DNA of 30,723 nucleotides. It comes from a virus. Lineage: Duplodnaviria > Heunggongvirae > Uroviricota > Caudoviricetes. The stretch's first letter is position 1. Every line of letters begins with the position of its first letter. The stretch lies in the IMG/VR virus record IMGVR_UViG_648276647_000020; one strand, written 5' to 3'. Below, one piece after another: positions 1 to 30,723 of this stretch. A program made the translations under genes and the position numbers. A model generated the notes under the pieces. It saw nothing but the letters and a program-made list of their open reading frames with translations. It was not told where the DNA came from and did no database searches.

Positions 1-2103
1 ATGCAGTCGTACGTTACCGTAAATGACCTGCTCGGTGTTCCTGGAATGCCAGCCACCGCGAAAGGCATCCGACAGGCGTTACAGCGTTTTTCTCGTGCTC
101 TTGGTGACGTTAGTCGCCGTCGAGCAGGTACAAAAGCCATTGAGTACCACATCGATTGCCTGCCTGAGGTAACCCAAAAGGCACTGCGTGAACGCTATGT
201 GGAACAACTGGTGGCTACAGAGAACAACGTCTCCGAAGTGAAGACCGTTACCAGGACGGCGCGTAACCCTGATGCTGTTCAGGCAGTTGAAGCATATCGG
301 GGTTCTCCGCAACTAATGGAGGAACGCCTGAATGCCCTGACTGAAAATCAGCGCCGGGTGTCTGAAGCAAGAACGGCGCTGGCAGTGGAAGTGCTGAAGC
401 TGGAAAGCGCCGGTAACCTCGGGCGACTGAAAGCCATTAACTTTCTGGTTGAAAAAGCCCGTAAAGGTGAGTTGCCGGAACGACTGCAACAGGCTGCGAT
501 TAACGCTAATGCAAAACGTGGCACTAATCGCACCATCAGCCGTGATCCGCTTTACCAGTGGGTACTGAAATACAACCAGTCGCAGAACGCCGCAGAACGA
601 CTGTTGTTACTGGCACCAGGAAAACGCGACGAAATAAAACCGGAAGAAATTAGCTGGCTGCCTGAATTTCTGGCGCAGTATCGTCAGGCTAACGGCAGAC
701 CTATGTCGGAAGCCTACGAGGATTTTGTCACGGAATGGCAACGTCGCTATGCGGACGAACCGTACATGCTGGAGGTGATGCCTTCCTATGATGTTGTCCG
801 GTATGCCATGAAAAAATTGCCGGAAGTGGTGAAACAAAAAGGACGCGTTACCGGCAGTGAATACCGCCAGCTTGAGGGATTCACCCGCCGCGACTGGACA
901 GCTATGCCGGTGAATTATGTCTGGATTGGTGACGGCCACGGTATGAAGCTGAAATGTGCGCATCCGATCCACGGGCGTCCATTTTCACCGGAAGTCACGT
1001 TTGTTATCGACGGTGGAACCCGGTTTGTTGTTGGCTGGAGTCTTGTTCTTGCGGAGAACGTGTTTGCTGTTGCCGGGGCGATACAGCACGGAATTCGCAA
1101 TCACGGAAAACCCTACCTGTATTACTCGGATAATGGTTCCGGTGAAACGGCAGATATGCTGGATAAAGAGATCGTCGGGATTCTGCCCCGTCTGGGTATT
1201 AACCACCCCACCGGTATTGCCGGAAATCCGCAGGGACGCGGCATCATTGAACGTCTGAACCGGACGCTGCCGATGCGTATAGCCAGACGGTATCGCACCT
1301 ATTTTGGCAAGGGGGCAGACCGGGAAACACTGCGTGTACTCAATCGCGATCTGCGTTCAGCATTTAATGCCCTGCAACAGGACAAACCGCTGAATGCCCG
1401 CCAGAAATCTGCAATGCGCGAGCTGCCGTCCTGGTCAGAACTGATTGAGGCTATTCGTGAAGGAGTGGAATGGTACAACAACCGCCCGCATTCTGAACTG
1501 CCGATAAAACCAAACGGGAAGCATTACAGCCCGGCAGAGTTCAGAAAAAAACGCCTGGCGGAAGAAGACACTGAAATTGAGTGGCTGAGTGATATTGAGC
1601 TGCGTGACATGTTCCGCCCGATGGTGGAGCGTCCGGTAAGACGCTGCGAAATCCAGTGGCTGAACAATATTTACTACGCGCCAGAGCTGCGTGATGAACA
1701 TGGTCGCAAGGTACTTATCAGCTATGACATTCATGATGCCGAGCGAATTACGGTACGCCGTAAGGACGGTAGCTTTATCTGTGAGGCGATATGGAACGGC
1801 AATAAACGCGCAGCCTTTCCTGTTACGGCTGAATATCACAAACAACAGCAGCGTATCAAAGGAATGCGCAAGCGTGCTGAGGAAAAAATACGTGATGCTG
1901 AGGATGAAGGTATTCAGGTTATTGAACAAAAAACGACAGAACCCTGGCTGGATAACATCTATCGCCCTGTTGGTAATGTGGTGACCGTTCAGCCGCTGAA
2001 GCGTGAGGAAGCGCATGATGACAAATACGACCCCGAACGTGATGAATATCTGAATCATTCGCTGGATATTCTGGAACAGAACAGACGTAAAAAAGTCATT
2101 TAA
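1..2103 (+). CDS. A: Mu-like DDE transposase A
   Basis: 700 aa ORF. C-terminus ...ERDEYLNHSLDILEQNRRKKVI resembles the MuA domain III tail (MuB/ClpX interaction) as I recall it. Core has IGDGHG, YYSDNGSGE and GIIERLNRT segments compatible with a D-D-E triad but looks divergent from MuA. Immediately upstream of the B-like ATPase. Confidence 0.88.
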   Translation: MQSYVTVNDLLGVPGMPATAKGIRQALQRFSRALGDVSRRRAGTKAIEYHIDCLPEVTQKALRERYVEQLVATENNVSEVKTVTRTARNPDAVQAVEAYRGSPQLMEERLNALTENQRRVSEARTALAVEVLKLESAGNLGRLKAINFLVEKARKGELPERLQQAAINANAKRGTNRTISRDPLYQWVLKYNQSQNAAERLLLLAPGKRDEIKPEEISWLPEFLAQYRQANGRPMSEAYEDFVTEWQRRYADEPYMLEVMPSYDVVRYAMKKLPEVVKQKGRVTGSEYRQLEGFTRRDWTAMPVNYVWIGDGHGMKLKCAHPIHGRPFSPEVTFVIDGGTRFVVGWSLVLAENVFAVAGAIQHGIRNHGKPYLYYSDNGSGETADMLDKEIVGILPRLGINHPTGIAGNPQGRGIIERLNRTLPMRIARRYRTYFGKGADRETLRVLNRDLRSAFNALQQDKPLNARQKSAMRELPSWSELIEAIREGVEWYNNRPHSELPIKPNGKHYSPAEFRKKRLAEEDTEIEWLSDIELRDMFRPMVERPVRRCEIQWLNNIYYAPELRDEHGRKVLISYDIHDAERITVRRKDGSFICEAIWNGNKRAAFPVTAEYHKQQQRIKGMRKRAEEKIRDAEDEGIQVIEQKTTEPWLDNIYRPVGNVVTVQPLKREEAHDDKYDPERDEYLNHSLDILEQNRRKKVI

Positions 2104-2141: not shown

Positions 2142-3080
2142 ATGAATATTTCCGATATTCGCGCAGGACTGCGCACGCTTGTAGAAAATGAAGAAACCAC
2201 CTTTAAACAAATTGCTCTCGAGAGCGGGCTTTCTACCGGAACTATCAGTAGTTTTATCAATGATAAGTACAACGGGGATAACGAGCGTGTTTCACAAATG
2301 CTGCAACGCTGGCTGGAAAAATATCATGCAGTTGCAGAACTACCTGAACCGCCCCGCTTTGTGGAAACGCAGACGGTAAAACAAATCTGGACAAGTATGC
2401 GTTTTGCCAGCCTGACTGAAAGTATTGCTGTTGTATGTGGCAATCCTGGTGTGGGCAAAACCGAAGCGGCCCGTGAATATCGCCGCACCAATAACAATGT
2501 CTGGATGATCACCATTACGCCATCCTGTGCCAGCGTTCTGGAATGTCTTACTGAACTGGCGTTTGAGCTGGGAATGAATGACGCACCACGCCGTAAAGGG
2601 CCACTCTCCCGTGCCCTGCGACGTCGCCTTGAAGGTACACAGGGGCTGGTTATCATCGACGAAGCTGATCATCTTGGTGCCGAAGTTCTGGAAGAACTCC
2701 GCCTGTTACAGGAATCAACCCGCACTGGCCTTGTGCTGATGGGAAATCACCGGGTTTATTCAAATATGACGGGGGGTAACAGAACGGTTGAATTTGCCCG
2801 TCTGTTTTCCCGTATTGCAAAGCGCACTGCAATTAATAAAACAAAAAAAGCCGATGTAAAAGCTATTGCGGATGCCTGGCAGATTAACGGCGAAAATGAA
2901 CTGGAGTTATTACAGCAGATTGCGCAGAAACCAGGTGCGCTTCGCATTCTGAATCATTCACTTCGCCTTGCAGCCATGACGGCTCACGGTAAAGGTGAGC
3001 GTGTTAACGAAGATTATCTGCGTCAGGCTTTCCGTGAATTAGACCTGGACGTTGATATTTCAACGCTGCTGCGTAATTAA
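2142..3080 (+). CDS. B: Mu B-like transposition ATPase (target DNA activator)
   Basis: 312 aa. Walker A GNPGVGKTE, Walker B-like LVIIDEADHL. SD gagg upstream of ATG. Position directly after A. Confidence 0.92.
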   Translation: MNISDIRAGLRTLVENEETTFKQIALESGLSTGTISSFINDKYNGDNERVSQMLQRWLEKYHAVAELPEPPRFVETQTVKQIWTSMRFASLTESIAVVCGNPGVGKTEAAREYRRTNNNVWMITITPSCASVLECLTELAFELGMNDAPRRKGPLSRALRRRLEGTQGLVIIDEADHLGAEVLEELRLLQESTRTGLVLMGNHRVYSNMTGGNRTVEFARLFSRIAKRTAINKTKKADVKAIADAWQINGENELELLQQIAQKPGALRILNHSLRLAAMTAHGKGERVNEDYLRQAFRELDLDVDISTLLRN

Positions 3081-3845: not shown

Positions 3846-4265
3846 ATGAACGTCAAAATCCGAAATGAAATTCAGGCATTAATCCGAATTCAGGAACGCA
3901 ATAACAACGGTGGTGAATTACGCGAGTTTATTTGCGCCCGGAAAGTTGATGGTTATGGTGAAAAGACTTACCTGATTACTTTCGACCATTACAGCATCTG
4001 TGCGCGTTATTGTGGCGAAAGCATATCCCGCGCCATTGCGTCTGGCGATGCGTTTAACGTGGATTTATGGGAGTACGTCATGGACCGTGAATACATCTGT
4101 GTATCAGACCCGAAAGCCCGTGAAATGTGGCAGCGTATCTGGCGCGATTACCGGTTAATGGCAAAAGGCTGGGCGCGCTGCTGTTATTCCTCGCTTGCCC
4201 TGAAAGCGGTTCAGTTATCGCTGCGGCATATTCCGGCATCACTGCGCGAGCCTCTGCTGTACTGA
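3846..4265 (+). CDS. hypothetical early protein (Cys-containing)
   Basis: 140 aa from internal ATG 3846 (MNVKIRNE...). Alternative start ATG 3822 overlaps the previous stop. No recognisable motif. Confidence 0.5.
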   Translation: MNVKIRNEIQALIRIQERNNNGGELREFICARKVDGYGEKTYLITFDHYSICARYCGESISRAIASGDAFNVDLWEYVMDREYICVSDPKAREMWQRIWRDYRLMAKGWARCCYSSLALKAVQLSLRHIPASLREPLLY

Positions 4266-4277
4266 ATGGTGGCTGAC

Positions 4278-4565
4278 ATGAAGTGTAATCGTAAGCGCTG
4301 GTCACGCGAAGACCGGGAATTTATCGAAGCCAACGTCGGGAAAATGACCGTTGAAGAAATGGCGGAAAAACTGAAAGTCGCCACAACCGCCCTCCGGGCA
4401 CATGCCAGAAGGCACGGAATATCATTGTGTGTATACCGAATCAGTGAACACGACAAATATTTATGTCGTGAACTTTATAAAGAAGGGCTGGATATTCATG
4501 TCATTGCCCGAAAGATGGAATTAAGCAATCGAGCTGTATCCAGCATTGTATACAGCGGATATTAA
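4278..4565 (+). CDS. small putative HTH DNA-binding protein
   Basis: About 96 aa; GGTGG SD 8 nt before ATG 4278 (alternative ATG 4266). Two helix-turn-helix-like stretches (MTVEEMAEKLKVATTALRAHARRHGI; LDIHVIARKMELSNRAVSSIVYSG). Confidence 0.5.
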   Translation: MKCNRKRWSREDREFIEANVGKMTVEEMAEKLKVATTALRAHARRHGISLCVYRISEHDKYLCRELYKEGLDIHVIARKMELSNRAVSSIVYSGY

Positions 4566-4584
4566 TTAACAGGAGCTTTAATTT

Positions 4585-5109
4585 ATGGCTAAACCAGCAA
4601 AACGTATCAAAAGTGCCGCAGCGGCTTATGTTCCACAAAACCGCGATGCGGTGATTACCGATATTAAACGCATCGGGGACTTACAGCGCGAAGCATCACG
4701 TCTGGAAACGGAAATGAATGATGCCATCGCGGAAATTACGGAGAAATTTGCAGCCCGGATTGCACCGATTAAAACCGATATTGAAACCCTTTCAAAAGGC
4801 GTTCAGGGATGGTGTGAAGCGAACCGCGACGAACTGACGAACGGCGGCAAAGTGAAGACGGCGAATCTTGTCACCGGTGATGTATCGTGGCGGGTCCGTC
4901 CACCATCAGTAAGTATTCGTGGTATGGATGCAGTGATGGAAACGCTGGAGCGTCTTGGCCTGCAACGCTTTATTCGCACGAAGCAGGAAATCAACAAGGA
5001 AGCGATTTTACTGGAACCGAAAGCGGTCGCAGGCGTTGCCGGAATTACAGTTAAATCAGGCATTGAGGATTTTTCTATTATTCCATTTGAACAGGAAGCC
5101 GGTATTTAA
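4585..5109 (+). CDS. gam: Gam-like host-nuclease inhibitor (DNA-end binding)
   Basis: 174 aa; N-terminus MAKPAKRIKSAAAAYVPQNRDAVITDIKRIGDLQREASRLE... resembles Mu Gam as I recall it. SD aggag upstream. Confidence 0.85.
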   Translation: MAKPAKRIKSAAAAYVPQNRDAVITDIKRIGDLQREASRLETEMNDAIAEITEKFAARIAPIKTDIETLSKGVQGWCEANRDELTNGGKVKTANLVTGDVSWRVRPPSVSIRGMDAVMETLERLGLQRFIRTKQEINKEAILLEPKAVAGVAGITVKSGIEDFSIIPFEQEAGI

Positions 5110-5207
5110 TACCACCATTAATATTTAATTAATTCACATTCTTTTAATTATGGCGCGATACGTCAGGGGATTGCTCGCGCCTGAAACAGATTACTGAGGA
5201 ATAAAAC

Positions 5208-5738
5208 ATGGTTGATGCAAAAATTCTGAATGGTGTCAGCACATTATTACGGGCTTTCGGACGCCTGACCTGCGGAGTTCTGGCTGAAAAAATGAATATG
5301 CTGCCCTCGTCAATGGTGTATTTCCTGCGTGATGCGGTTGATGCCGGAGTGCTCACCGAATGCAACGGATTTTATGACGTTCCGCGCCCGCGTCCGACGC
5401 CGCCTGTAAGACGAAACGCAACTGAGCAGCCTGCTGTTGATGATGCGGTGTGGTGCAACTGGCGTCGCTCATTACCCTGGGTGGAAGGTAATACCATCCC
5501 CGCGCTGGCAAAAGAGTTTGCGACGGGCGTGCTGACCTGTGAATCCGTTCACATCGTTGCAGAAGTGGACAACAGAATGTGCGAACAGGGTATGCCCCGT
5601 TTTGTGATGGCTTATATCGATATCCGGCTGGGGCGTTTTATTTGCAGTTCAAGCGCCTGGAATATCACCGACCATGTACTGCGTTATCTCATTCTTGATT
5701 GTTCTCCGGTTCCCGCAGCGGTGCAGGAGATGGCGTGA
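5208..5738 (+). CDS. hypothetical early protein, possible N-terminal winged-helix
   Basis: 176 aa, SD gagga upstream. Stop overlaps the next start (TGATG at 5736-5740). Confidence 0.55.
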   Translation: MVDAKILNGVSTLLRAFGRLTCGVLAEKMNMLPSSMVYFLRDAVDAGVLTECNGFYDVPRPRPTPPVRRNATEQPAVDDAVWCNWRRSLPWVEGNTIPALAKEFATGVLTCESVHIVAEVDNRMCEQGMPRFVMAYIDIRLGRFICSSSAWNITDHVLRYLILDCSPVPAAVQEMA

Positions 5739-6268
5739 TGTTTTTTAAAACGTCAAATCCCGCAGCACTGCTGGCATGGGACCAGTTTATGGCGGACTGC
5801 CTGAAACTACGCGAAGAAGCCCGCCATCTTGAGAAGGTTCTGGGCTGTGGTTGCCGGTCAGTATTCAGCACAGGTATTGGTGGGCGTCATTTTCATGGCG
5901 TGAATTTTCCGGGGAATGAGCGCCCCTTCTCGCGGGAGCTGTGGACCGTACAACGGCCCGCATCAGGTAACAGTTGCAGGCCCAGAACTTCGCGGATACC
6001 TGCTCATCTCAGGGAGCAGGCAAGAGAGCTGGCGAAAATATGGCAGGAGAATATTCCGGTCACTTACGCCCGCACAGACGCTCTTTTACCCGCACTGGGA
6101 CTGGATTTCAGCGCAACAATATTCGGGCCGCTCCAGTGGTTCCGTGTTGGTGATGTGATTTACGTCATGACGGGGATGACACCCGCACAAGGCCGCATGA
6201 CTGAAATCCTTTCTGACGAATTTATCCGGGCGCAAAAACAGGCGGAGGTAAACAATGGAAAACAATAA
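5738..6268 (+). CDS. hypothetical early protein
   Basis: 176 aa from ATG 5738, translationally coupled to the upstream ORF. A central low-complexity stretch and an overlapping alternative-frame ORF (5916-6158) leave open a frameshifted gene. Confidence 0.45.
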   Translation: MFFKTSNPAALLAWDQFMADCLKLREEARHLEKVLGCGCRSVFSTGIGGRHFHGVNFPGNERPFSRELWTVQRPASGNSCRPRTSRIPAHLREQARELAKIWQENIPVTYARTDALLPALGLDFSATIFGPLQWFRVGDVIYVMTGMTPAQGRMTEILSDEFIRAQKQAEVNNGKQ

Positions 6269-6437
6269 AACATCGTATTCGTGGCTGGGGAAATTCACCA
6301 CGGTGAAACAGGAATGCCCGACCTGCGGTAATGAATCCCCTGAATATCTGAAAGAGTGCCCTCATTGTGGCGGGCTGAAATGCAACCACTGCGATATGGG
6401 CGATGACACAGCGTGCATGAATTGTGAAGGTGAATAA
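6255..6437 (+). CDS. putative zinc-ribbon small protein
   Basis: 60 aa with four CxxC pairs (CPTC, CPHC, CNHC, CMNC). SD ggagg 6 nt upstream. Confidence 0.55.
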   Translation: MENNKTSYSWLGKFTTVKQECPTCGNESPEYLKECPHCGGLKCNHCDMGDDTACMNCEGE

Positions 6438-6438
6438 T

Positions 6439-6741
6439 ATGAATAATGAAACTAAATTTACTCCCCTTAATATTGATAACGTCATGGCTGAAAAAGGGAT
6501 GCTGGAACGTGTTCGCGCTATCGTTGAATATGGTATTAAGCATAATCTCACCGCCAGAGAAGTCCGTGACATTATCAACCGCGAAATGAATCGTCTGGAA
6601 ACAGTAGTGGCACTGCAAAATGAAACAGCCCGCGAGGAGTACATCCGCCGCAGGCTGGGGCTATCAGACCAGGATATTGTTACTGACGCTCATGTATTTG
6701 AGGCTTTTGAGATCCGTCAGCATCTGGGCCTTACGAACTGA
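6439..6741 (+). CDS. hypothetical early protein
   Basis: 100 aa from ATG 6439 with SD aaggtg; the track's 6424 start is a GTG just upstream. Confidence 0.5.
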   Translation: MNNETKFTPLNIDNVMAEKGMLERVRAIVEYGIKHNLTAREVRDIINREMNRLETVVALQNETAREEYIRRRLGLSDQDIVTDAHVFEAFEIRQHLGLTN

Positions 6742-6792
6742 TGTGTAAATTCAGGCGGTGTTGCAGCACCGCCTCTTTCCGGAGGTACGATC

Positions 6793-7344
6793 ATGAGTCG
6801 CACATCCCTGATTAAATTAATCCATGTCGCCCGTCGGGAGCTACAACTCGACGACGACACTTACCGCGCTTTTCTGATGCAGAAAACGGGCAAAATCAGT
6901 TGCCGCGAGCTGACGGTAACGCAACTGGAACAGGTGCTCGATGCCATGAAAGAACGCGGCTTTAAGAAGCTGAATAAACATCCACGTCGCCGCTTTAAGG
7001 GGCATGTCACGCCCCGCGAGAAGGTATACAAAGTCTGGCAGCAGATGGCAGAAGACGGTTTTATTACCGATGGCGGTGATGTGGCGCTGGATAAATATGT
7101 TCAGCGCCTGACGGCGAAACGTAATGGCGGACAGGGTGTTTCCACGCTGGCGTGGTGCCATGGCGACACGCTGCTGACAGTCCTCGAAACACTCAAGCAG
7201 TGGCACATCCGCTGTATTCGTGAAGCCTTTTCCCGTCACGGGCTTCCGTTGCCGGTCAGTCCGTCCGGGCGTGAACTGCGCGGCTATGACGCCATGACGG
7301 CGGCTTATGCCCATGCCAGAAAGACACGGAGGATGGCACAATGA
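6793..7344 (+). CDS. gemA: GemA-like (Mu gp16) regulatory protein
   Basis: 183 aa, N-terminus MSRTSLIKLIHVARRELQLDDDTYRAFLMQ.... Position immediately upstream of and overlapping mor (ATGA). SD ggagg. Confidence 0.7.
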   Translation: MSRTSLIKLIHVARRELQLDDDTYRAFLMQKTGKISCRELTVTQLEQVLDAMKERGFKKLNKHPRRRFKGHVTPREKVYKVWQQMAEDGFITDGGDVALDKYVQRLTAKRNGGQGVSTLAWCHGDTLLTVLETLKQWHIRCIREAFSRHGLPLPVSPSGRELRGYDAMTAAYAHARKTRRMAQ

Positions 7345-7730
7345 CGGAAGATTTATTTGGTGATTTGCAGGATGACACCATCCTGGCACATCTTGACAAT
7401 CCCGCCGAGGATACGTCACGCTTTCCGGCACTGCTGGCGGAGCTGAACGATTTACTGCGCGGGGAATTGTCCCGGCTGGGTGTTGATCCTGCCCATTCAC
7501 TGGAGATTGTTGTGGCTATCTGTAAGCATCTGGGCGGCGGTCAGGTCTACATTCCACGCGGTCAGGTTCTGGACTCGCTGATTCGGGATTTGCGTATCTG
7601 GAATGATTTTAACGGTCGCAACGTCAGCGAACTGACCACCCGTTATGGTGTCACTTTCAATACGGTTTACAAGGCCATTCGCCGGATGCGACGGCTGAAA
7701 TACCGCCAGTACCAGCCCTCACTTCTGTAA
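7341..7730 (+). CDS. mor: Mor-like middle-operon transcription activator
   Basis: 129 aa. C-terminal HTH region (YIPRGQVLDSLIRDLRIWNDFNGRNVSELTTRYGVTFNTVYKAIRR) is paralogous to the C protein at 8151. Followed by a terminator. Confidence 0.85.
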   Translation: MTEDLFGDLQDDTILAHLDNPAEDTSRFPALLAELNDLLRGELSRLGVDPAHSLEIVVAICKHLGGGQVYIPRGQVLDSLIRDLRIWNDFNGRNVSELTTRYGVTFNTVYKAIRRMRRLKYRQYQPSLL

Positions 7731-7737
7731 ACAGTAA

Positions 7738-7761
7738 AGCCGGTTAATCCGGCTTTTTTTA
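7738..7761 (+). terminator. rho-independent terminator after mor (end of early operon)
   Basis: Perfect hairpin AAAGCCGG (7738-7744) / loop TTAAT / CCGGCTTT (7750-7757), followed by a T-run to 7761. Confidence 0.8.
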
Positions 7762-7807
7762 CGTCCTCAATATCCTGTGATGAATAACCGTACCGGGGGA
7801 AATCATC

Positions 7808-8038
7808 ATGGGTAAAGGCTGGAATGCATCCTTTCATCTTGGCAGACGTGAGCGGCTGCGTCAGGAGGTTTTACACCGTGTCGCCGGTGGGCCACGTCCT
7901 GCGCCCCGCGACTATACCGGTCATGATGGCACCCACGGAAGTTATTACATGAAAGGCTGGCAGTCGGTTGATATGCCGGAAATTCTTCACCACTGCCAAC
8001 GTTATAAGGAAAAATATCATGTACAGAAAATTCAGTGA
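7808..8038 (+). CDS. hypothetical small protein between mor and C
   Basis: 76 aa ORF with SD ggggga upstream. Overlapped by minus-strand ORFs, so coding status is uncertain. Confidence 0.4.
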   Translation: MGKGWNASFHLGRRERLRQEVLHRVAGGPRPAPRDYTGHDGTHGSYYMKGWQSVDMPEILHHCQRYKEKYHVQKIQ

Positions 8039-8150
8039 TGAATGTTTCGGGCCGTCCACGCTGATTAATGCGATAAAAGTGATTGCCCTTGTGGTTCTGA
8101 TAACCATCAGTGCCGTGGTGTATCTTTCTGTCTGTTAACCGGGGGAAAAT

Positions 8151-8573
8151 ATGCAGCATGATTTATTTGAACACGATCCGGCAATTCGCCAGTTAATCGG
8201 ACATATTGATAACATCCCGGCCCCGGAACTGGAATCACGCTGGCCCCGTTCGGTGGTTGATCTGATTGATGTTCTGGAAAACGAACTGAAACGCCAGAAC
8301 GTCAGCAATCCCCGTGAGCTTGCCCGTAAACAGGCCGTTGCCCTGTCCTGTTTTCTGGGCGGGCGGCAGTTTTATATCCCCTGTGGCGATACTATCCTGA
8401 CCGCGTTACGCGACGATTTGCTTTACTGCCAGTTCAATGGTCGTAACATGGAAGAACTGCGTCGCCAGTACCGCCTGTCCCAGCCGCAGATCTACCAGAT
8501 TATTGCCCGCCAGAGAAAGCTGCATACACGGCGTCATCAGCCTGATCTGTTCTCACCTGAAAGCCCAAAATAA
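8151..8573 (+). CDS. C: C-like late-gene transcription activator (Mor/C family)
   Basis: 140 aa; YIPCGDTILTALRDDLLYCQFNGRNMEELRRQYRLSQPQIYQIIAR parallels the Mor HTH region. SD ggggga. Confidence 0.85.
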   Translation: MQHDLFEHDPAIRQLIGHIDNIPAPELESRWPRSVVDLIDVLENELKRQNVSNPRELARKQAVALSCFLGGRQFYIPCGDTILTALRDDLLYCQFNGRNMEELRRQYRLSQPQIYQIIARQRKLHTRRHQPDLFSPESPK

Positions 8574-8594
8574 CCGGCATCCTGCCGGTTATTT
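8568..8594 (+). terminator. hairpin/terminator overlapping the C stop codon
   Basis: ATAACCGGCA / loop TCC / TGCCGGTTAT perfect inverted repeat (8570-8592) followed by ATTT. The U-tract is short, so it may be a weak terminator or processing hairpin. Confidence 0.55.
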
Positions 8595-8664
8595 CCTGTC
8601 ACCATAATCCCGCACCTGTCACCTGATTTTTTAGACTGCCATCAGAGCATTTTTTCAGGGAAGC
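8595..8664 (+). promoter_or_regulatory. candidate C-dependent late promoter upstream of lys
   Basis: Motif CATAATCCCGCACCT (8603-8617) shares CATAA(T/C)CCC and CCCGCACCT with the region upstream of gene I (16783-16807). Possible -10 TAGACT at 8632-8637. Confidence 0.45.
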
Positions 8665-9183
8665 ATGATGGCGGGGATACCAAAAAAACTGAAAGCCGCA
8701 CTGCTGGCGGCAACGATTGCCGGTGGTGGTATGGGTGGTTATCAGGAAATGACCCGTCAGTCTCTGATCCATCTGGAAAATATCGCTTATCTGCCTTACC
8801 GCGATATTGCCGGTGTGCTTACGGTCTGTGTGGGACATACCGGGCCGGATATCGAAATGCGCCGTTACAGCCATGCGGAGTGTATGGCTCTCCTCGCCAG
8901 TGATTTAAAACCGGTTTATGCGGCAATCGATCGTCTTGTCAGGGTGCCGCTGACGCCATATCAGAAAACGGCGCTGGCAACGTTTATTTTCAACACCGGT
9001 GTTACCGCATTCAGTAAATCAACGCTGCTGAAAAAACTCAATGCCGGTGATTACGCCGGAGCGCGTGACCAGATGGCCCGCTGGGTGTTTGCCGCAGGCC
9101 ATAAATGGAAAGGACTGATGAACCGTCGCGAAGTGGAAATGGCAATCTGGAATATCAGGGGGGCGGATGACCTTCGCCAGTAA
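8665..9183 (+). CDS. lys: SAR endolysin, T4-lysozyme-like (GH24) muramidase
   Basis: 172 aa. N-terminal Ala/Gly-rich weakly hydrophobic segment (KKLKAALLAATIAGGGMGG) typical of a signal-anchor-release domain. Catalytic E-x8-D-x5-T spacing (E38, D47, T53). Confidence 0.85.
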   Translation: MMAGIPKKLKAALLAATIAGGGMGGYQEMTRQSLIHLENIAYLPYRDIAGVLTVCVGHTGPDIEMRRYSHAECMALLASDLKPVYAAIDRLVRVPLTPYQKTALATFIFNTGVTAFSKSTLLKKLNAGDYAGARDQMARWVFAAGHKWKGLMNRREVEMAIWNIRGADDLRQ

Positions 9184-9553
9184 AAGTTTACTGCTGGCAG
9201 CCGTGTTTACCGCCGTTCTGTCCGGGGTGTTGTGGCACAGGCTGGACAGCACCCGCCACGATAACCAGACGCTGCGCCGTGAATTACAGACGGAGCAACA
9301 GGCCCGCAACACGGCTGAATGGTTGTTACACGGTCAGGAACAGACGATGCAGGTATTTTCCGCTATCCGTGCCGCAAATCGTGCCGCACGGCTGGCAGAT
9401 GAGACAGAACATCATGATGCAAAAGAAAAAATTACAACCGCCATTACTGGTGACAATTGCAGCACTCGTCCTGTGCCTGCCGTTGCTGCTGACAGGTTGC
9501 GGGAACTCGAAAAACGCACCCGTGCCATCGGTGGTGATCCTGCCCGAAACTGA
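9167..9553 (+). CDS. i-spanin (Rz-like)
   Basis: 128 aa with N-terminal TM helix (LLLAAVFTAVLSGVLW) then charged coiled-coil-like periplasmic domain. Directly after the endolysin, overlapping its stop. Confidence 0.7.
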   Translation: MTFASKSLLLAAVFTAVLSGVLWHRLDSTRHDNQTLRRELQTEQQARNTAEWLLHGQEQTMQVFSAIRAANRAARLADETEHHDAKEKITTAITGDNCSTRPVPAVAADRLRELEKRTRAIGGDPARN

Positions 9554-9755
9554 TACAGAACTGACAGAAGCAACGCCCGTTCCGCCCATGCCACAGCCCC
9601 TGACGTGGGGAGCATCCCTTCTCTGGAATGCTGACCTGTTGATGGCGCTCGGGCAGTGCAACCGCGACAAGGCATCAGTCCGGGAACAGGAGATCCGAAG
9701 GAAAGAAATTTATGAACGAAGACCAGAACCGGGCGGTGGCGCTGCTGCTCGCTGA
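9414..9755 (+). CDS. o-spanin (Rz1-like lipoprotein), overlapped architecture
   Basis: Starts at ATGATG 9414 in the +1 frame inside the i-spanin gene. Signal peptide with lipobox LLLTGC, then a Pro-rich mature region. The 3' extent (114 aa) is longer than typical and uncertain. Confidence 0.6.
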   Translation: MMQKKKLQPPLLVTIAALVLCLPLLLTGCGNSKNAPVPSVVILPETDTELTEATPVPPMPQPLTWGASLLWNADLLMALGQCNRDKASVREQEIRRKEIYERRPEPGGGAAAR

Positions 9756-9906
9756 ACTCTGGCAGGGGGATACCCGTGATATTCCCCGCCCGGCGGCGTA
9801 TGACCCGCCTGTATTGTGTGCCGGTTGCTGTCGTGAGCTGCGGCCTGATGTGCTGAGACAGCAGCCGATGGCGAACTACTGCCACTGGTGCCGTGGAGCA
9901 GAATAA
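9712..9906 (+). CDS. hypothetical small Cys-containing protein
   Basis: 64 aa. Stop overlaps the start of the next gene (TAATG at 9904-9908), suggesting coupling. Overlaps the o-spanin 3' end. Confidence 0.45.
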   Translation: MNEDQNRAVALLLAELWQGDTRDIPRPAAYDPPVLCAGCCRELRPDVLRQQPMANYCHWCRGAE

Positions 9907-10205
9907 TGGATTTGATTTCAGTTTTAGCGTTATGGCCTTACCTGTTGCCTGTTGTGGCCGGTGGGGCCGTCTGGGCGATGCGTCGTAGTTTTGCCAGCAC
10001 CGAGCGTGTGGAGCGTCTTGAAAACCGGATGACCGAAATGGAAACCCGCTACGCCAGCATCCCTGGCACAGAAGATGTACACGAAATGCGCCTGCGTATT
10101 GCAGAGCTGTCCGGCGATATCCGGGTGCTGTCCCAGCGGGTGCAGTCATTTTCCCATCAACTGGAGCTGCTGCTTGAAAACGCAGTAAACCGGAGTAATT
10201 CATGA
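9906..10205 (+). CDS. gp25-like membrane protein (candidate releasin)
   Basis: 100 aa from ATG 9906 (SD ggagcaga). N-terminal TM helix (LISVLALWPYLLPVVAGGAVWA) then coiled-coil-like region. Sits in the lysis cassette at the Mu gp25 position. Confidence 0.6.
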   Translation: MDLISVLALWPYLLPVVAGGAVWAMRRSFASTERVERLENRMTEMETRYASIPGTEDVHEMRLRIAELSGDIRVLSQRVQSFSHQLELLLENAVNRSNS

Positions 10206-10492
10206 TTAACGATATTCTGACTGAAGACCGTCGTCTGGTCATCCTGCGTTCCCTGATGGACTGCAATAACGAAGCCAACGAATCCATCCTTCAGGACTGT
10301 CTGGATGCATACGGACACAACGTTTCCCGCGATGTGGTTCGCGGCCAGATTGACTGGCTGGCAGAGCAGCAACTGGTCACCGTGGAAAACCTGCGCGGCT
10401 TTTATGTCGTAACGCTGACCTCCCGAGGTCAGGATGTGGCGGAAGGCCGCGCCCGCGTTGCCGGTGTCAAGCGTCCGCGTCCCCGTGCATGA
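10202..10492 (+). CDS. Mu gp26-like protein
   Basis: 96 aa, ATGA overlap with the upstream gene, SD ggag. Function inferred from synteny only. Confidence 0.6.
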   Translation: MINDILTEDRRLVILRSLMDCNNEANESILQDCLDAYGHNVSRDVVRGQIDWLAEQQLVTVENLRGFYVVTLTSRGQDVAEGRARVAGVKRPRPRA

Positions 10493-10503
10493 CAGGAGGC
10501 GTG

Positions 10504-11079
10504 ATGGACAGGAAAACACGGGGCCGGGCTTCAAAAGTGGATTTACTGCCGGAAAACGTACGTAAAACGCTGCATGAAATGCTGCGTGATAAGGCGATCC
10601 CACAGGCCCGCATTCTGGAAGAAATTAACGCACTGATTGAAGACGCAGGCCTGCCGGATGAGATGAAACTCTCCCGTTCCGGTCTGAACCGTTACGCGAC
10701 GAACGTCGAGCAGGTAGGCCATAACCTGCGACAGATGCGTGAAATGACGTCAGCACTGACCGCAGAACTTGGCGACAAGCCAATGGGCGAAACCACAAAG
10801 CTGATTCTGGAAATGGCCCGCAGCCAGCTTTTTAAGGCCATGATGCGGCAAATCGAAAACCCGGAATCTGACGTGGATATTGACCTGCTGAAAAATGCCA
10901 TGCTGGCGGCACAGCGTCTGGAATCCACGGCAATGTCCAGCCACCGGCGCGAGAAAGAAATCCGCCAGGCATTCGCAGAAGAAGCAGCAAACGCCGTCAG
11001 TGAAGAACTGCGCGGGCAGGATGGTATCAGCGAAGAGCTGGAGCAGCGTATCCGTGATGTACTGCTGGGGAAAGCGTAG
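10504..11079 (+). CDS. Mu gp27-like protein (putative small terminase/DNA-binding subunit)
   Basis: Perfect SD AGGAGG 7 nt before ATG 10504; the track's 10489 start overlaps the previous stop. Basic N-terminus, acidic C-terminus. Immediately upstream of the large-terminase region. Confidence 0.65.
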   Translation: MDRKTRGRASKVDLLPENVRKTLHEMLRDKAIPQARILEEINALIEDAGLPDEMKLSRSGLNRYATNVEQVGHNLRQMREMTSALTAELGDKPMGETTKLILEMARSQLFKAMMRQIENPESDVDIDLLKNAMLAAQRLESTAMSSHRREKEIRQAFAEEAANAVSEELRGQDGISEELEQRIRDVLLGKA

Positions 11080-11089
11080 GCGTTACGTT

Positions 11090-11260
11090 ATGAAAAATGA
11101 TTACAAAGCACAGCTAATCAGTGCCCATAAAAAAGCCTTCAGGATTGCAACATTGTCTGATGTCCGGTTGATACACCAGATTCGGGATGTGCTTGTTCAG
11201 GCTATGGCTTCAGGCAATTCATGGCATACGACCATAAAACAACTAAGGACTTTGTCCTGA
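11090..11260 (+). CDS. hypothetical small protein (islet ORF 1)
   Basis: 56 aa from ATG 11090, weak RBS, lower-GC sequence than the flanking late genes. Confidence 0.35.
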   Translation: MKNDYKAQLISAHKKAFRIATLSDVRLIHQIRDVLVQAMASGNSWHTTIKQLRTLS

Positions 11261-11270
11261 GGAGATGAAA

Positions 11271-11468
11271 ATGGCGGATGAAAAAACTAAATACAAGACC
11301 TCAACAGAACTGGCAATGGTACTGTGGCCCGTTGTGAAAAAACAGATTGATGAGGATCCGGAAGTCCATCCACGAATTATGGCCGAGGCCCTGTATCTGG
11401 TTATGCAACTGGTGGATGGCCCGGCTACAGCGGGCCAGGTGATCAGTTATTCTCAGGTTCACCGATAA
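11271..11468 (+). CDS. hypothetical small protein (islet ORF 2)
   Basis: 65 aa from ATG 11271 with GGAG 7 nt upstream (alternative ATG 11265). Confidence 0.4.
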   Translation: MADEKTKYKTSTELAMVLWPVVKKQIDEDPEVHPRIMAEALYLVMQLVDGPATAGQVISYSQVHR

Positions 11469-11637
11469 CGGTTTTTTCAACAATTTTGTAGAAAGCATTA
11501 AATGTGTTTTCTTCCACTGATGCTTTTCCTGAACAGGAGATCTCAAGTGAAACGCCTTTTGCCTGGGTGGATTCAAACATTTGCACGGCTATCCGGGCAA
11601 TTTCGATTTTTTGATCAATGGTCAGTTTCTCTTTCAT
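11443..11637 (-). CDS. hypothetical small protein on the opposite strand (candidate moron)
   Basis: 64 aa (MKEKLTIDQKIEIARIAVQMFESTQAKGVSLEISCSGKASVEENTFNAFYKIVEKTVIGEPENN). Minus-strand ATG at 11635-11637 is preceded by AAGAGG SD at 5 nt spacing. About 38% GC by my manual count over 11461-11700, versus about 52% in the adjacent terminase start. Confidence 0.45.
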   Translation of the reverse strand: MKEKLTIDQKIEIARIAVQMFESTQAKGVSLEISCSGKASVEENTFNAFYKIVEKTVIGEPENN

Positions 11638-11692
11638 AAAAACCTCTTTTTTACTGATTAATGCCTGAAAATTTATACCGGATTTTTCGCCC

Positions 11693-13348
11693 ATGAGCAC
11701 CAGAGAAAGCAAACTTAAAGCCCTTCATGCGCCCCGCAAAATCGACCTGCGTAAGGAAGCCGGACTGCTCGGCGTGAATATCGTGACCGATATCGGTGAA
11801 GCACAGCCCCGCAATGAACCGGTTTTCCTGGGCTATCAGCGCCGCTGGTTTGAGGATGAAAGCCAGATTTGTATCGCTGAAAAATCCCGTCGTACCGGTC
11901 TGACATGGGCTGAAGCGGGCCGCAATGTCATGACGGCCGCAAAGCCGAAGCGTCGCGGTGGTCGCAACGTCTTTTATGTGGGTTCCCGTCAGGAAATGGC
12001 GCTGGAATACATCGCCGCCTGTGCCCTGTTTGCCCGCGCCTTTAACCAGCTGGCAAAGGCTGATGTCTGGGAGCAGACCTTCTGGGACAGCGATAAAAAA
12101 GAAGAAATCCTCACTTATATGATCCGCTTTCCGAACAGCGGATTTAAGATACAGGCGCTGTCAAGCCGCCCGTCTAACCTGCGTGGTTTGCAGGGGGACG
12201 TGGTGATTGATGAGGCGGCATTTCATGAAGCCCTGGACGAACTCCTGAAAGCGGCCTTTGCACTAAACATGTGGGGTGCCAGCGTGCGCATCATATCGAC
12301 ACATAACGGCGTCGATAATTTGTTTAATCAGTACATTCAGGATGCGCGCGAGGGGCGCAAGGATTACAGCGTTCACCGCATCACGCTGGATGATGCCATC
12401 GCTGACGGGTTGTACCGACGTATCTGTTACGTCACGAATCAGCCGTGGTCGCCGGAAGCGGAAAAAGCCTGGCGTGATGGCCTGTACCGGAATGCGCCGA
12501 ATAAAGAGAGTGCTGACGAGGAATACGGCTGCATTCCTAAAAAATCCGGGGGCGCTTATCTGTCACGCGTGCTGATTGAAGCCGCCATGACGCCAGCGCG
12601 GGATATCCCGGTTCTGCGTTTTGAAGCCCCGGACGATTTTGAATCGCTGACACCACAAATGCGCCACGACATCGTTCAGGACTGGTGTGAACAGGAGCTG
12701 CTCCCGTTGCTCGATGCGCTGTCGCCGCTCAATAAACACGTACTGGGCGAAGACTTTGCGCGCCGTGGCGACCTGACGGTGTTTGTGCCGCTTGCCATCA
12801 CGCCTGACTTACGCAAACGCGAATGTTTCCGCGTGGAGCTGCGTAATGTGACCTATGACCAGCAGCGACAAATCCTTTTATTCATTCTGTCCCGTTTGCC
12901 CCGTTTTACCGGCGCTGCATTTGATGCCACCGGTAACGGCGGTTATCTGGCAGAGGCCGCCCGTCTGATTTATGGCCCGGAGATGATCGACTGCATCAGT
13001 CTGACCCCCGCCTGGTATCAGGAGTGGATGCCAAAACTGAAAGGCGAGTTTGAAGCGCAGAACATCACGATTGCCCGGCATCAGACCACACTTGATGACC
13101 TGCTTCATATCAAGGTGGATAAGGGGATCCCGCAGATTGACAAGGGGCGCACAAAAGATGAAGGCGGTAAAGGCCGACGACATGGCGACTTTGCCGTAGC
13201 GCTCTGTATGGCTGTCAGGGCGTCTTATATGAATGGTTTTGTTATCGACGAGGACAGCATACAGGCGCTGCCACCACGCCACCGTGGTGATGATGTTGAT
13301 AACGATGATTTTGATGATTATCACCAGTTTGAACGAGGGGGCTGGTAA
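11693..13348 (+). CDS. terminase large subunit (Mu gp28-like)
   Basis: 551 aa ORF directly upstream of and coupled to the portal gene (TAATG overlap); size and position as in Mu-like phages. Confidence 0.8.
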   Translation: MSTRESKLKALHAPRKIDLRKEAGLLGVNIVTDIGEAQPRNEPVFLGYQRRWFEDESQICIAEKSRRTGLTWAEAGRNVMTAAKPKRRGGRNVFYVGSRQEMALEYIAACALFARAFNQLAKADVWEQTFWDSDKKEEILTYMIRFPNSGFKIQALSSRPSNLRGLQGDVVIDEAAFHEALDELLKAAFALNMWGASVRIISTHNGVDNLFNQYIQDAREGRKDYSVHRITLDDAIADGLYRRICYVTNQPWSPEAEKAWRDGLYRNAPNKESADEEYGCIPKKSGGAYLSRVLIEAAMTPARDIPVLRFEAPDDFESLTPQMRHDIVQDWCEQELLPLLDALSPLNKHVLGEDFARRGDLTVFVPLAITPDLRKRECFRVELRNVTYDQQRQILLFILSRLPRFTGAAFDATGNGGYLAEAARLIYGPEMIDCISLTPAWYQEWMPKLKGEFEAQNITIARHQTTLDDLLHIKVDKGIPQIDKGRTKDEGGKGRRHGDFAVALCMAVRASYMNGFVIDEDSIQALPPRHRGDDVDNDDFDDYHQFERGGW

Positions 13349-28630: not shown

Positions 28631-29713
28631 ATGGCTTATTCACCACCGACATTATCATCGCTGATTGCCCGTACAGAACAGAATATTGAACAGCGCCTGC
28701 CGGGTAGCTGGCCTCAGGCCCGTGAAAAAACGCTGAGTGCCATTGCTTACGCCCAGGCAGGGCTTGCTGCCGGTTGTCACGAGCATATTTCATGGGTTGG
28801 ACGGCAGATTATCCCGTCGACAGCAGATGAAGATGAGTTGCTGGAGCACTGCCGGTTCTGGGGCGTGCGCCGCAAACAGGCGACAGCCGCCAGCGGCCCG
28901 CTGACTGTCACCACATCGGCAGCGACCACCATACCTGCCGGTACACGCTGGCAGCGCGCTGATGGTGTGGTTTACAGCCTGGCTGATGCCATTGTGATTG
29001 ACCGTGCCGGAACGACGGAAATTACCGTTACCGCACTGGCTGCCGGTGAGGCAGGAAATACTGGCGAGAATACCCTTTTAACGTTGATCACCCCGGTTGC
29101 CTGTGTTGTTTCCGATGCCATCACCGTAAAAGGGTTTTCCGGTGGGGCTGATATTGAGAGTGCAGCGGAGCTGCTGTCACGGCTGGAATATCGTGTCCAG
29201 TATCCTCCGTTCGGCGGTAATCAGTTTGATTACGTCCGCTGGGCACGTGAAGTCAGCGGCGTTACCCGTGCCTGGTGTTTTCCGACATGGAAAGGCGGTG
29301 GCACAGTCGGGGTGACGTTTGTTATGGATAACCGGAGCAATATTTTTCCACAACCGGCAGACGTGGAACGCGTGGCGGGTTATATCGCCGGTCATACTGA
29401 CCCGATCACCGGTCTGATTGTCGGACAGCCTGACGGTGTAAATGTCACTGTATTTGCGCCAAAGGCAAAGCCGGTAAATCCACGGATTTATATATCACCG
29501 AAGACAGCCGAACTGAAACAGGCTATTACCCACGCCATTAATACCATGTTTTTTAATGAGGTGACGCCGGGCGGCGCACTTGCCCCCTCCCGTATTATCC
29601 GTGCGGTGGCAGGTGTTACCGGTCTGGATGATTTTGAAGTGCGTTTCCCGACAGAGACCCAGCGTTCGGAGAATACGGAACTGTTAACACCGGGGACAAT
29701 TGAATGGCTGTAA
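28631..29713 (+). CDS. baseplate J-like protein (Mu gp47-like)
   Basis: 360 aa; size and position typical of baseplate wedge proteins. Confidence 0.7.
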   Translation: MAYSPPTLSSLIARTEQNIEQRLPGSWPQAREKTLSAIAYAQAGLAAGCHEHISWVGRQIIPSTADEDELLEHCRFWGVRRKQATAASGPLTVTTSAATTIPAGTRWQRADGVVYSLADAIVIDRAGTTEITVTALAAGEAGNTGENTLLTLITPVACVVSDAITVKGFSGGADIESAAELLSRLEYRVQYPPFGGNQFDYVRWAREVSGVTRAWCFPTWKGGGTVGVTFVMDNRSNIFPQPADVERVAGYIAGHTDPITGLIVGQPDGVNVTVFAPKAKPVNPRIYISPKTAELKQAITHAINTMFFNEVTPGGALAPSRIIRAVAGVTGLDDFEVRFPTETQRSENTELLTPGTIEWL

Positions 29714-30246
29714 CACCCTATCAGACGGCCTTTCTGCAATTACTGCCGTCAGGGCTTGCCTGGAATAAAAGCCCCGACAGCAAATTATCTGCGCTGGCGC
29801 AGGCCATCAGCGACGTGATTGCCACTGCGGCGGATGATGCGCGGCAAATGCTGCGGGAGCGTTTCCCGTCCACATCCCGCTGGTATCTGGGGGAGTGGGA
29901 ATCATTTCTGGGGTTGCCGGACTGTACAAGCGAAAACGGCACCCTGTCCGAACGCCAGCGGGCTGCCGCGAATAAAATGCGTATGACCGGCAATCTGAGT
30001 CGGCGCTTTTATGAATGGCTGGCTGCGCAGTACGGTTTTACCGTCAGGCTGACGGATTCCACAGAAGGCCAGTGGGTTACGCAGGTCAATATTTACGGTA
30101 TTAAAAATTATCGCAACGCAACGGTGCTGGATAATGTTCTGACGCCGTTACGTGTTTATGAATCGGGTGCGCTGGAATGTTTACTGGAGAAATATAAACC
30201 CGCACATCAGATTTATAAATTTGTTTACCATGACGGAGATAACTAA
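29704..30246 (+). CDS. tail protein (Mu gp48/R-like)
   Basis: 180 aa; last intact phage gene before the IS insertion. Its stop TAA overlaps a downstream ATG (30246). Confidence 0.65.
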   Translation: MAVTPYQTAFLQLLPSGLAWNKSPDSKLSALAQAISDVIATAADDARQMLRERFPSTSRWYLGEWESFLGLPDCTSENGTLSERQRAAANKMRMTGNLSRRFYEWLAAQYGFTVRLTDSTEGQWVTQVNIYGIKNYRNATVLDNVLTPLRVYESGALECLLEKYKPAHQIYKFVYHDGDN

Positions 30247-30256
30247 TGTTTTATAT

Positions 30257-30274
30257 GGCTTTGTTGAATAAATC
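30257..30274. repeat. IS903-type 18-bp terminal inverted repeat
   Basis: GGCTTTGTTGAATAAATC; the partner repeat is expected about 1 kb to the right, outside the window. Confidence 0.75.
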
Positions 30275-30312
30275 AGATTTCGGGTAAGTCTCCCCCGTAG
30301 CGGGTTGTGTTT

Positions 30313-30723
30313 TCAGGCAATACGCAGGCTTTCAGGCATACCTGCTTTCGTCATTTTGTTCAGCGCTCGTACCAGGGCCATAGCCTCCGCAACCTGACCA
30401 TCGTAGTCACGCAACGTCAGTGAACCCCCGAACAGCTGTTTTACCCGGTACATCGCCGTTTCCGCTATCGAGCGACGGTTGTAATCTGTTGTCCATTTCC
30501 ACCGCGCATTACTCCCGGTCATTCGCTGACTGGCCACTGCACGGTTACGGTCTGCATATTCACCGGGCCAGTAACCCGCACCTTTTCGGGGAGGAATAAG
30601 CGCGCTGATTTTCTTACGCCGCAGTTCATCGTGACAGAGCCGGGTGTCGTAAGCGCCGTCTGCCAGTGCTGCCCTGATTTTTCTGTGAGTCTGCCGGATA
30701 AGACCCGGGAAGGCTTCTGAGTC
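30313..30723 (-). CDS. IS903-family transposase, C-terminal portion (N-terminus outside window)
   Basis: Minus-strand frame open from the window edge to the stop at 30313-30315; translation ...DRNRAVASQRMTGSNARWKWTTDYNRRSIAETAMYRVKQLFGGSLTLRDYDGQVAEAMALVRALNKMTKAGMPESLRIA. Confidence 0.8.
   Translation of the reverse strand, partial: DSEAFPGLIRQTHRKIRAALADGAYDTRLCHDELRRKKISALIPPRKGAGYWPGEYADRNRAVASQRMTGSNARWKWTTDYNRRSIAETAMYRVKQLFGGSLTLRDYDGQVAEAMALVRALNKMTKAGMPESLRIA

Follow-up and report, generated by a model that had tools for sequence, protein, structure and literature searches.

At the right end of a Mu-like prophage, the late gene gp48 is followed by a frame of only a few codons and then by the terminal repeat of an insertion sequence (IS), at the place where a tail-fibre gene would be expected. 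This locus raises the question of whether tail-fibre gene S has been interrupted, at which nucleotide, by what kind of event, and what this would leave of the phage.

The window (the whole stretch of 30,723 nucleotides analyzed here) corresponds to the terminal 30,723 bases, minus one, of the E. coli scaffold GL883932.1 (assembly GCA_000176555.2, 328,618 bp). The last 14,242 bases were compared and are 100% identical between window and scaffold, the window stopping 1 nt short of the scaffold end. The same contig was recovered in the Logan assembly of run SRR024152, with a single 1-nt indel relative to the NCBI scaffold in the 12.1 kb compared. Several E. coli chromosomes without a prophage at this site match the host DNA on the left of the prophage with 100% identity. 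Judged from this flank, the host is therefore E. coli.

Within the window, the Mu-like prophage extends from the phage transposase gene, whose ATG is the first codon of the window, to gp48. DNA identity to Mu, D108, SfMu and the Yersinia vB_YpM phages is 96-98.6% over most of this length. Forty-six Mu proteins, from B (Mu_4) to gp48, were compared with the window by tblastn. A single full-length colinear match was obtained for 44 of the 46, with 93-100% amino acid identity; gp18 is the least conserved of the shared proteins (93%). No tblastn counterpart was found in the window for the other two of the 46 proteins tested, Mu_54 and Mu_19 (E19, a protein with four TM segments); the window positions concerned are ~6740-6790 and ~8020-8140. 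Since 44 of the 46 proteins match singly and at full length, the other structural genes in the window are, at the level of sequence, unbroken. Mu gene order and sequence were found from B through the head, tail and baseplate genes, as in a Muvirus, the A transposase being a divergent allele.

Junction between gp48 and the tail-fibre gene

The features discussed below are collected in the table. The gp48 protein is 99.4% identical in amino acids to Mu gp48 over its full length and contains the Pfam domain Phage_Mu_Gp48 (PF10076, E=1e-27). The exact protein is widespread, occurring in 12,011 blocks according to an exact-protein look-up, and the DNA of the gp48 region is 99.3-100% identical to that of Mu, D108 and vB_YpM_3. 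As the initial annotation had stated, the gp48 stop codon (TAA, 30244-30246) overlaps an ATG (30246-30248), forming the motif TAATG (30244-30248). This overlap can be read directly in the window, and the ATG indeed opens a frame of 13 codons.

Coordinates of the features described in the text (window positions).
Feature	Position	Strand	Basis or remark
gp48 baseplate wedge gene, intact, last before the tail-fibre gene	29704..30246	+	180-aa ORF
GGAG ribosome binding site (RBS) of S	30235..30238	+	position equivalent to the RBS annotated at Mu 31447-31450
Sole genuine remainder of S: first 11 nt, ATGTTTTATAT	30246..30256	+	same as the start of S in Mu and vB_YpM_3
Stub ORF MFYMALLNKSDFG: 3 S codons, 10 IS-encoded codons and a stop	30246..30287	+	direct translation
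Predicted left copy of the 9-bp target duplication, GTTTTATAT	30248..30256	+	9 bp abutting the IS end
18-bp terminal inverted repeat GGCTTTGTTGAATAAATC, end beside the transposase stop codon	30257..30274	+	exact match
IS903B-like insertion sequence, 467 of the expected 1057 bp	30257..30723	-	cut by scaffold end
3' part of IS903-type DDE transposase, C-terminal 136 aa and stop	30313..30723	-	open frame
Small ORF in terminase insert, 67 aa, phrog_21398, unknown function	11265-11468	+	convergent with the 89-aa ORF
Small ORF in terminase insert, 89 aa	11443-11712	-	convergent with the 67-aa ORF

The further claim that S directly follows gp48 in Mu is borne out by the Mu record, in which the coding sequence of S (Mu_49) opens with the very ATG that overlaps the stop codon of gp48; an RBS is annotated 8-11 nt upstream of it. 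The sequence of this RBS is the same in the window, in Mu and in 10 other loci. Moreover, the uninterrupted junction ATGTTTTATATTGATAAC (MFYIDNDSGV) is present in Mu, in the Yersinia phage vB_YpM_3 and in 10 of 10 other loci with identical gp48. At these 10 further loci, which share the gp48 protein exactly, a tail-fibre ORF of 405-854 aa is called at that same ATG.

A three-way alignment of the window, Mu and vB_YpM_3 displayed identity through ATGTTTTATAT and divergence from position 30257. Past the break, Mu and vB_YpM_3 read TGATAACGAC, whereas the window reads the IS terminal repeat. Because Mu and the ten loci are uninterrupted at this point, and the window switches at 30257, the IS lies between nucleotides 11 and 12 of S. 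The disruption within the first few codons suggested by the initial annotation is thereby placed after nucleotide 11, in codon 4, and the IS cuts S off from its own start codon and RBS as well as from the overlap with gp48.

The position right after gp48, the TAATG overlap, the RBS and the first 11 nt are shared with S of Mu, D108 and vB_YpM_3. In those phages S runs for 1.5 kb, whereas in the window it ends after codon 3 and enters the IS. Comparison of the 13-codon stub with the N-termini of Mu S gave the same picture, with 11 nt in common followed by IS sequence. A member of the S family would begin with MFYIDNDSG and continue as a fibre protein of ~400-850 aa; what is kept here is the start codon, the RBS and 11 nt. 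As read from its translation, the stub is a remnant and not a functional S.

The IS903-type element and its target site

The initial annotation placed the terminal repeat of an IS903-type element at 30257. The 18 bp at this position match exactly: GGCTTTGTTGAATAAATC occurs a single time in the window, with 0 mismatches, where 0.02 chance matches with up to 3 mismatches are expected. A complete IS903B copy, with ends that are inverted repeats of each other, terminates in these same 18 bp; one of the two ends is visible in the window. The proposed extension of the match into an IS903-like element also held. Indeed, positions 30257-30723 differ at 6 of 467 nt from a complete 1057-bp IS903B in an end-to-end alignment; the homology starts exactly at the IS terminus and is continuous to the end of the window. 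A chance 18-bp match was rejected, as the homology spans the full 467 nt and only 0.02 matches are expected.

The transposase frame is oriented toward gp48, antisense to the phage late operon. Its C-terminus is 97.8% identical (133/136, three amino acid differences) to the annotated IS903B transposase, and the fragment matches the Pfam domain DDE_Tnp_1 (PF01609, E=2e-16); the N-terminal ~170 aa lie beyond the scaffold end. Both the terminal repeat and the PF01609 DDE transposase of the IS903 group (IS5 family) are thus present.

The IS903B copy of plasmid pLH375_1 (K. pneumoniae, NZ_CP035197.1, 9215-10271) shares with the element the 18-bp terminal repeat, the spacing from the end to the stop codon and 98.7% nucleotide identity over 467 nt. 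It differs by six nucleotides and three amino acids (S>L, N>S, V>L) over the 44% of the element that is visible in the window. Copies of IS903 and IS903B with 98.5-98.7% identity to the element number in the thousands, on plasmids as well as in E. coli genomes. None of the top-scoring matches listed for two collections exceeded 98.7% identity over the full 467 nt, and the exact partial transposase occurred only at the end of GL883932.1 in the exact-protein look-up.

Both IS903 and IS903B generate 9-bp target duplications (PMC2577343 Table 1; PMC13618097), and gene inactivation by IS903B is accompanied by such duplications (PMC13618097). The 9 bp abutting the IS end in the window are predicted to be the left copy. 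A comparable case is that of cirA in K. pneumoniae (PMC13618097), in which an IS903B-type element likewise interrupts a coding sequence and a 9-bp duplication is reported. There, however, the element hit a host receptor gene, under antibiotic selection, whereas the target here is a prophage structural gene and selection is not in evidence. The flanks of the uninterrupted site (CTAAT and TGATA) agree with the published IS903 motif WTTYA-N9-TRAAW at 5 of 10 positions, and the site is AT-rich. This motif is a preference and not a requirement, and the half-matched site adds no support.

Simple insertion and its alternatives

Taken with the junction described above, the element very probably reached its site by simple transposition: an IS903B-like element of the IS903 group (IS5 family) inserted into S of an E. 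coli Muvirus prophage, splitting codon 4 between nucleotides 11 and 12, and with the transposase reading antisense to the late operon. Such an event would leave a complete 1057-bp copy flanked by the GTTTTATAT duplication, with the rest of S and then U, U', S', gin, com and mom beyond it. The right junction is then predicted to read ...CAACAAAGCC-GTTTTATAT-TGATAACGAC... (far IS end, duplication, S from nucleotide 12 onward), and the far end can be sought with CAACAAAGCC followed by GTTTTATATTGATAACGAC.

Both junctions were searched for in sequence collections. For the left junction, BLAST detected no spanning record in 5,426 complete E. coli genomes or in PLSDB plasmids, and an exact search found it absent from GTDB representative genomes, IMG/VR and JGI metagenomes. 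The right junction (IS end, 0-14 nt, then S from nucleotide 12 onward) was found in none of the genome and metagenome collections, among which the source assembly GCA_000176555.2 is not included. With neither junction recovered from the collections searched, the insertion is probably confined to this strain; it is probably also recent.

An IS-S fusion protein was not found among 5.8 billion proteins, the only S-like matches beginning with the normal MFYIDND. The other matches to the fusion query that were fetched (P0003, P0004) are short ORFs reading through from an IS903 end. From their names and partial coverage, the remaining ones look like read-throughs into other genes. Many of the other listed matches (within P0003-P0120) are named 'hypothetical protein, partial', come from Klebsiella, E. 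coli or Enterobacter assemblies and align to the query in its IS-derived part only; if these are of the same read-through type, they represent a recurrent annotation artefact of the IS end.

Because the source assembly lies outside the DNA-searchable collections, the negative results for the right junction and the fusion do not tell a simple insertion apart from a deletion, inversion or composite transposon bounded by the IS. Adjacent deletions are among the products of IS903, which also flanks Tn903. A larger IS-mediated event, either an adjacent deletion or inversion removing or displacing S, U, gin and mom, or a Tn903-like composite with two IS903 copies, is nevertheless unlikely. It is consistent with the visible IS being limited to 467 nt, and with the failure to find the predicted simple right junction and the fusion product in the collections searched, but the source assembly was outside these searches, whose negative outcome therefore counts for next to nothing. 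By far the most frequent result when IS903 transposes is a simple insertion, and a left junction placed exactly at the IS terminus is compatible with either model. S is destroyed in both cases; after a larger event, the right end of the prophage would also be missing or moved.

We also considered that the junction might have been created during assembly, by the chimeric joining of a prophage contig and a repeat contig, with S unbroken in the actual genome. It is 467 nt away from the end of a scaffold, within a multicopy repeat, in a draft assembly, and the run accession SRR024152 suggests early sequencing data. Against this, two assemblies (NCBI and Logan) cross the junction, and the break falls on the first base of the IS terminal repeat, as predicted by transposition but not by a random chimera. 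An IS-free join would read from gp48 into ...ATATTGATAACGAC, and with such an IS-free path the Logan contig would be expected to stop at 30256; judged by its length, this contig ends about 27 nt inside the IS. Such an end within the IS is as expected for a multicopy repeat, with no IS-free allele. Because two assemblers cross the junction, the break coincides with the IS terminus and the Logan contig passes 30256, an artefact is extremely improbable.

Finally, the reservation in the initial annotation that the IS might sit in a short spacer upstream of an intact S, with its own start beyond the IS, had to be rejected on the Mu annotation, the three-way alignment and the 10 related loci, and its probability is negligible: S begins at the ATG equivalent to that at 30246 in Mu, where the RBS is annotated as well, in vB_YpM_3 and in 10/10 related loci, homology to S is lost after nucleotide 11, and a 9-bp duplication would restore nothing but GTTTTATAT, so that both the RBS and the AT of the ATG would be lacking.

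Predicted consequences and other features of the prophage

Under simple insertion, S would lose its RBS, its start codon and its translational coupling to gp48 through TAATG. The ~1 kb of foreign DNA in the operon would likely be polar on U and lower its expression. S together with U, or S' together with U', make the tail fibres that set the host range, and the conserved N-terminus of S is common to both orientations of the G segment (PMC4406740, PMC10434027). In the Mu record, positions 31458-31966 (S nucleotides 1-509) are marked as also encoding the N-terminus of S'. With the break inside this constant segment of S and S', inversion of the G segment would provide no bypass. Both fibre types should therefore be lost, since the insertion lies in the N-terminal part that they have in common.

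Upon induction, the prophage should remain capable of transpositional replication, cell lysis and the assembly of heads and contractile tails. Its particles would be devoid of fibres and non-infectious, unless another phage supplied S/U-like functions; complementation of Mu S/U mutants by the S/U functions of P1 has been reported. Given what S is known to do, the phage is almost certainly disabled. That prophages are inactivated by an IS entering one of their structural genes is textbook knowledge. The case is one of ordinary prophage decay, of which the site is the only new aspect, and it has no bearing on open questions about Mu, IS903 or phage-host biology.

Some less destructive outcomes were envisaged. 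Assuming the far end of an IS903B-like element and the 9-bp duplication, the S frame can be followed from the far junction back into the IS for 68 codons without a stop, and an in-frame ATG occurs there, 74 nt within the element. Read-through from the phage late promoter may then give an S protein in which Met1 is replaced by a 25-residue IS-encoded extension. Alternatively, the host might maintain a contractile particle that is complete except for its fibres, or a prophage with swappable fibres that depends on the S/U-like genes of another resident phage. We regard this set of outcomes as highly unlikely.

The value of the observation lies in annotation. The prophage should be recorded as defective and tail-fibre-less, with replication, lysis, head and tail modules intact in the window, and the 13-codon stub should not be annotated as a gene. 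A multicopy IS here ends the scaffold exactly at the prophage gene that was hit, hiding the remainder of the prophage.

Several other features of the prophage were observed. The transposase gene (window 1-2103; upstream, Logan contig 6372-7578) encodes 700 aa with 25-39% identity to MuA, whereas the neighboring B is 99% identical to MuB. DNA homology to Mu restarts at about window position 2013, so that only the last ~30 codons of A are Mu-like. It looks from this pattern as if the left end, c, ner and A had been swapped as a module, with the C-terminal tail of A being kept; in MuA, this tail makes the contacts with MuB and ClpX. The exact A allele is found on one contig only in an index of 153 billion genes. 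The nearest alleles in complete E. coli genomes have about 90% DNA identity, and vB_YpM_5 and vB_YpM_6 share A from window position 583 onward.

In the B gene (window 2142-3080; Logan contig 9720-10436), a protein of 238 aa is called in the Logan contig, versus 312 aa in the window. The single 1-nt indel between the two assemblies may be the cause of this shorter call, and is itself probably a sequencing or assembly error rather than biology.

An insert of 617 nt (window 11080-11692) separates the genes for the small (gp27) and large (gp28) terminase subunits, which are adjacent in Mu. It carries the two small convergent ORFs listed in the table, and its only phage match is a partial one, at 87%, in Yersinia phage vB_YpM_Tongde. 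This insert may be a moron.

A related Mu-like prophage was also encountered in ENA ERZ28604099 scaffold_1 (3900-12543). It appears to be rearranged internally: a gp47 truncated to 179 aa comes after gin, com and mom, in inverted order, and downstream of the G segment lie gp46, gp45 and gp44, inverted. This arrangement points to an inversion that had one of its ends within the baseplate genes.
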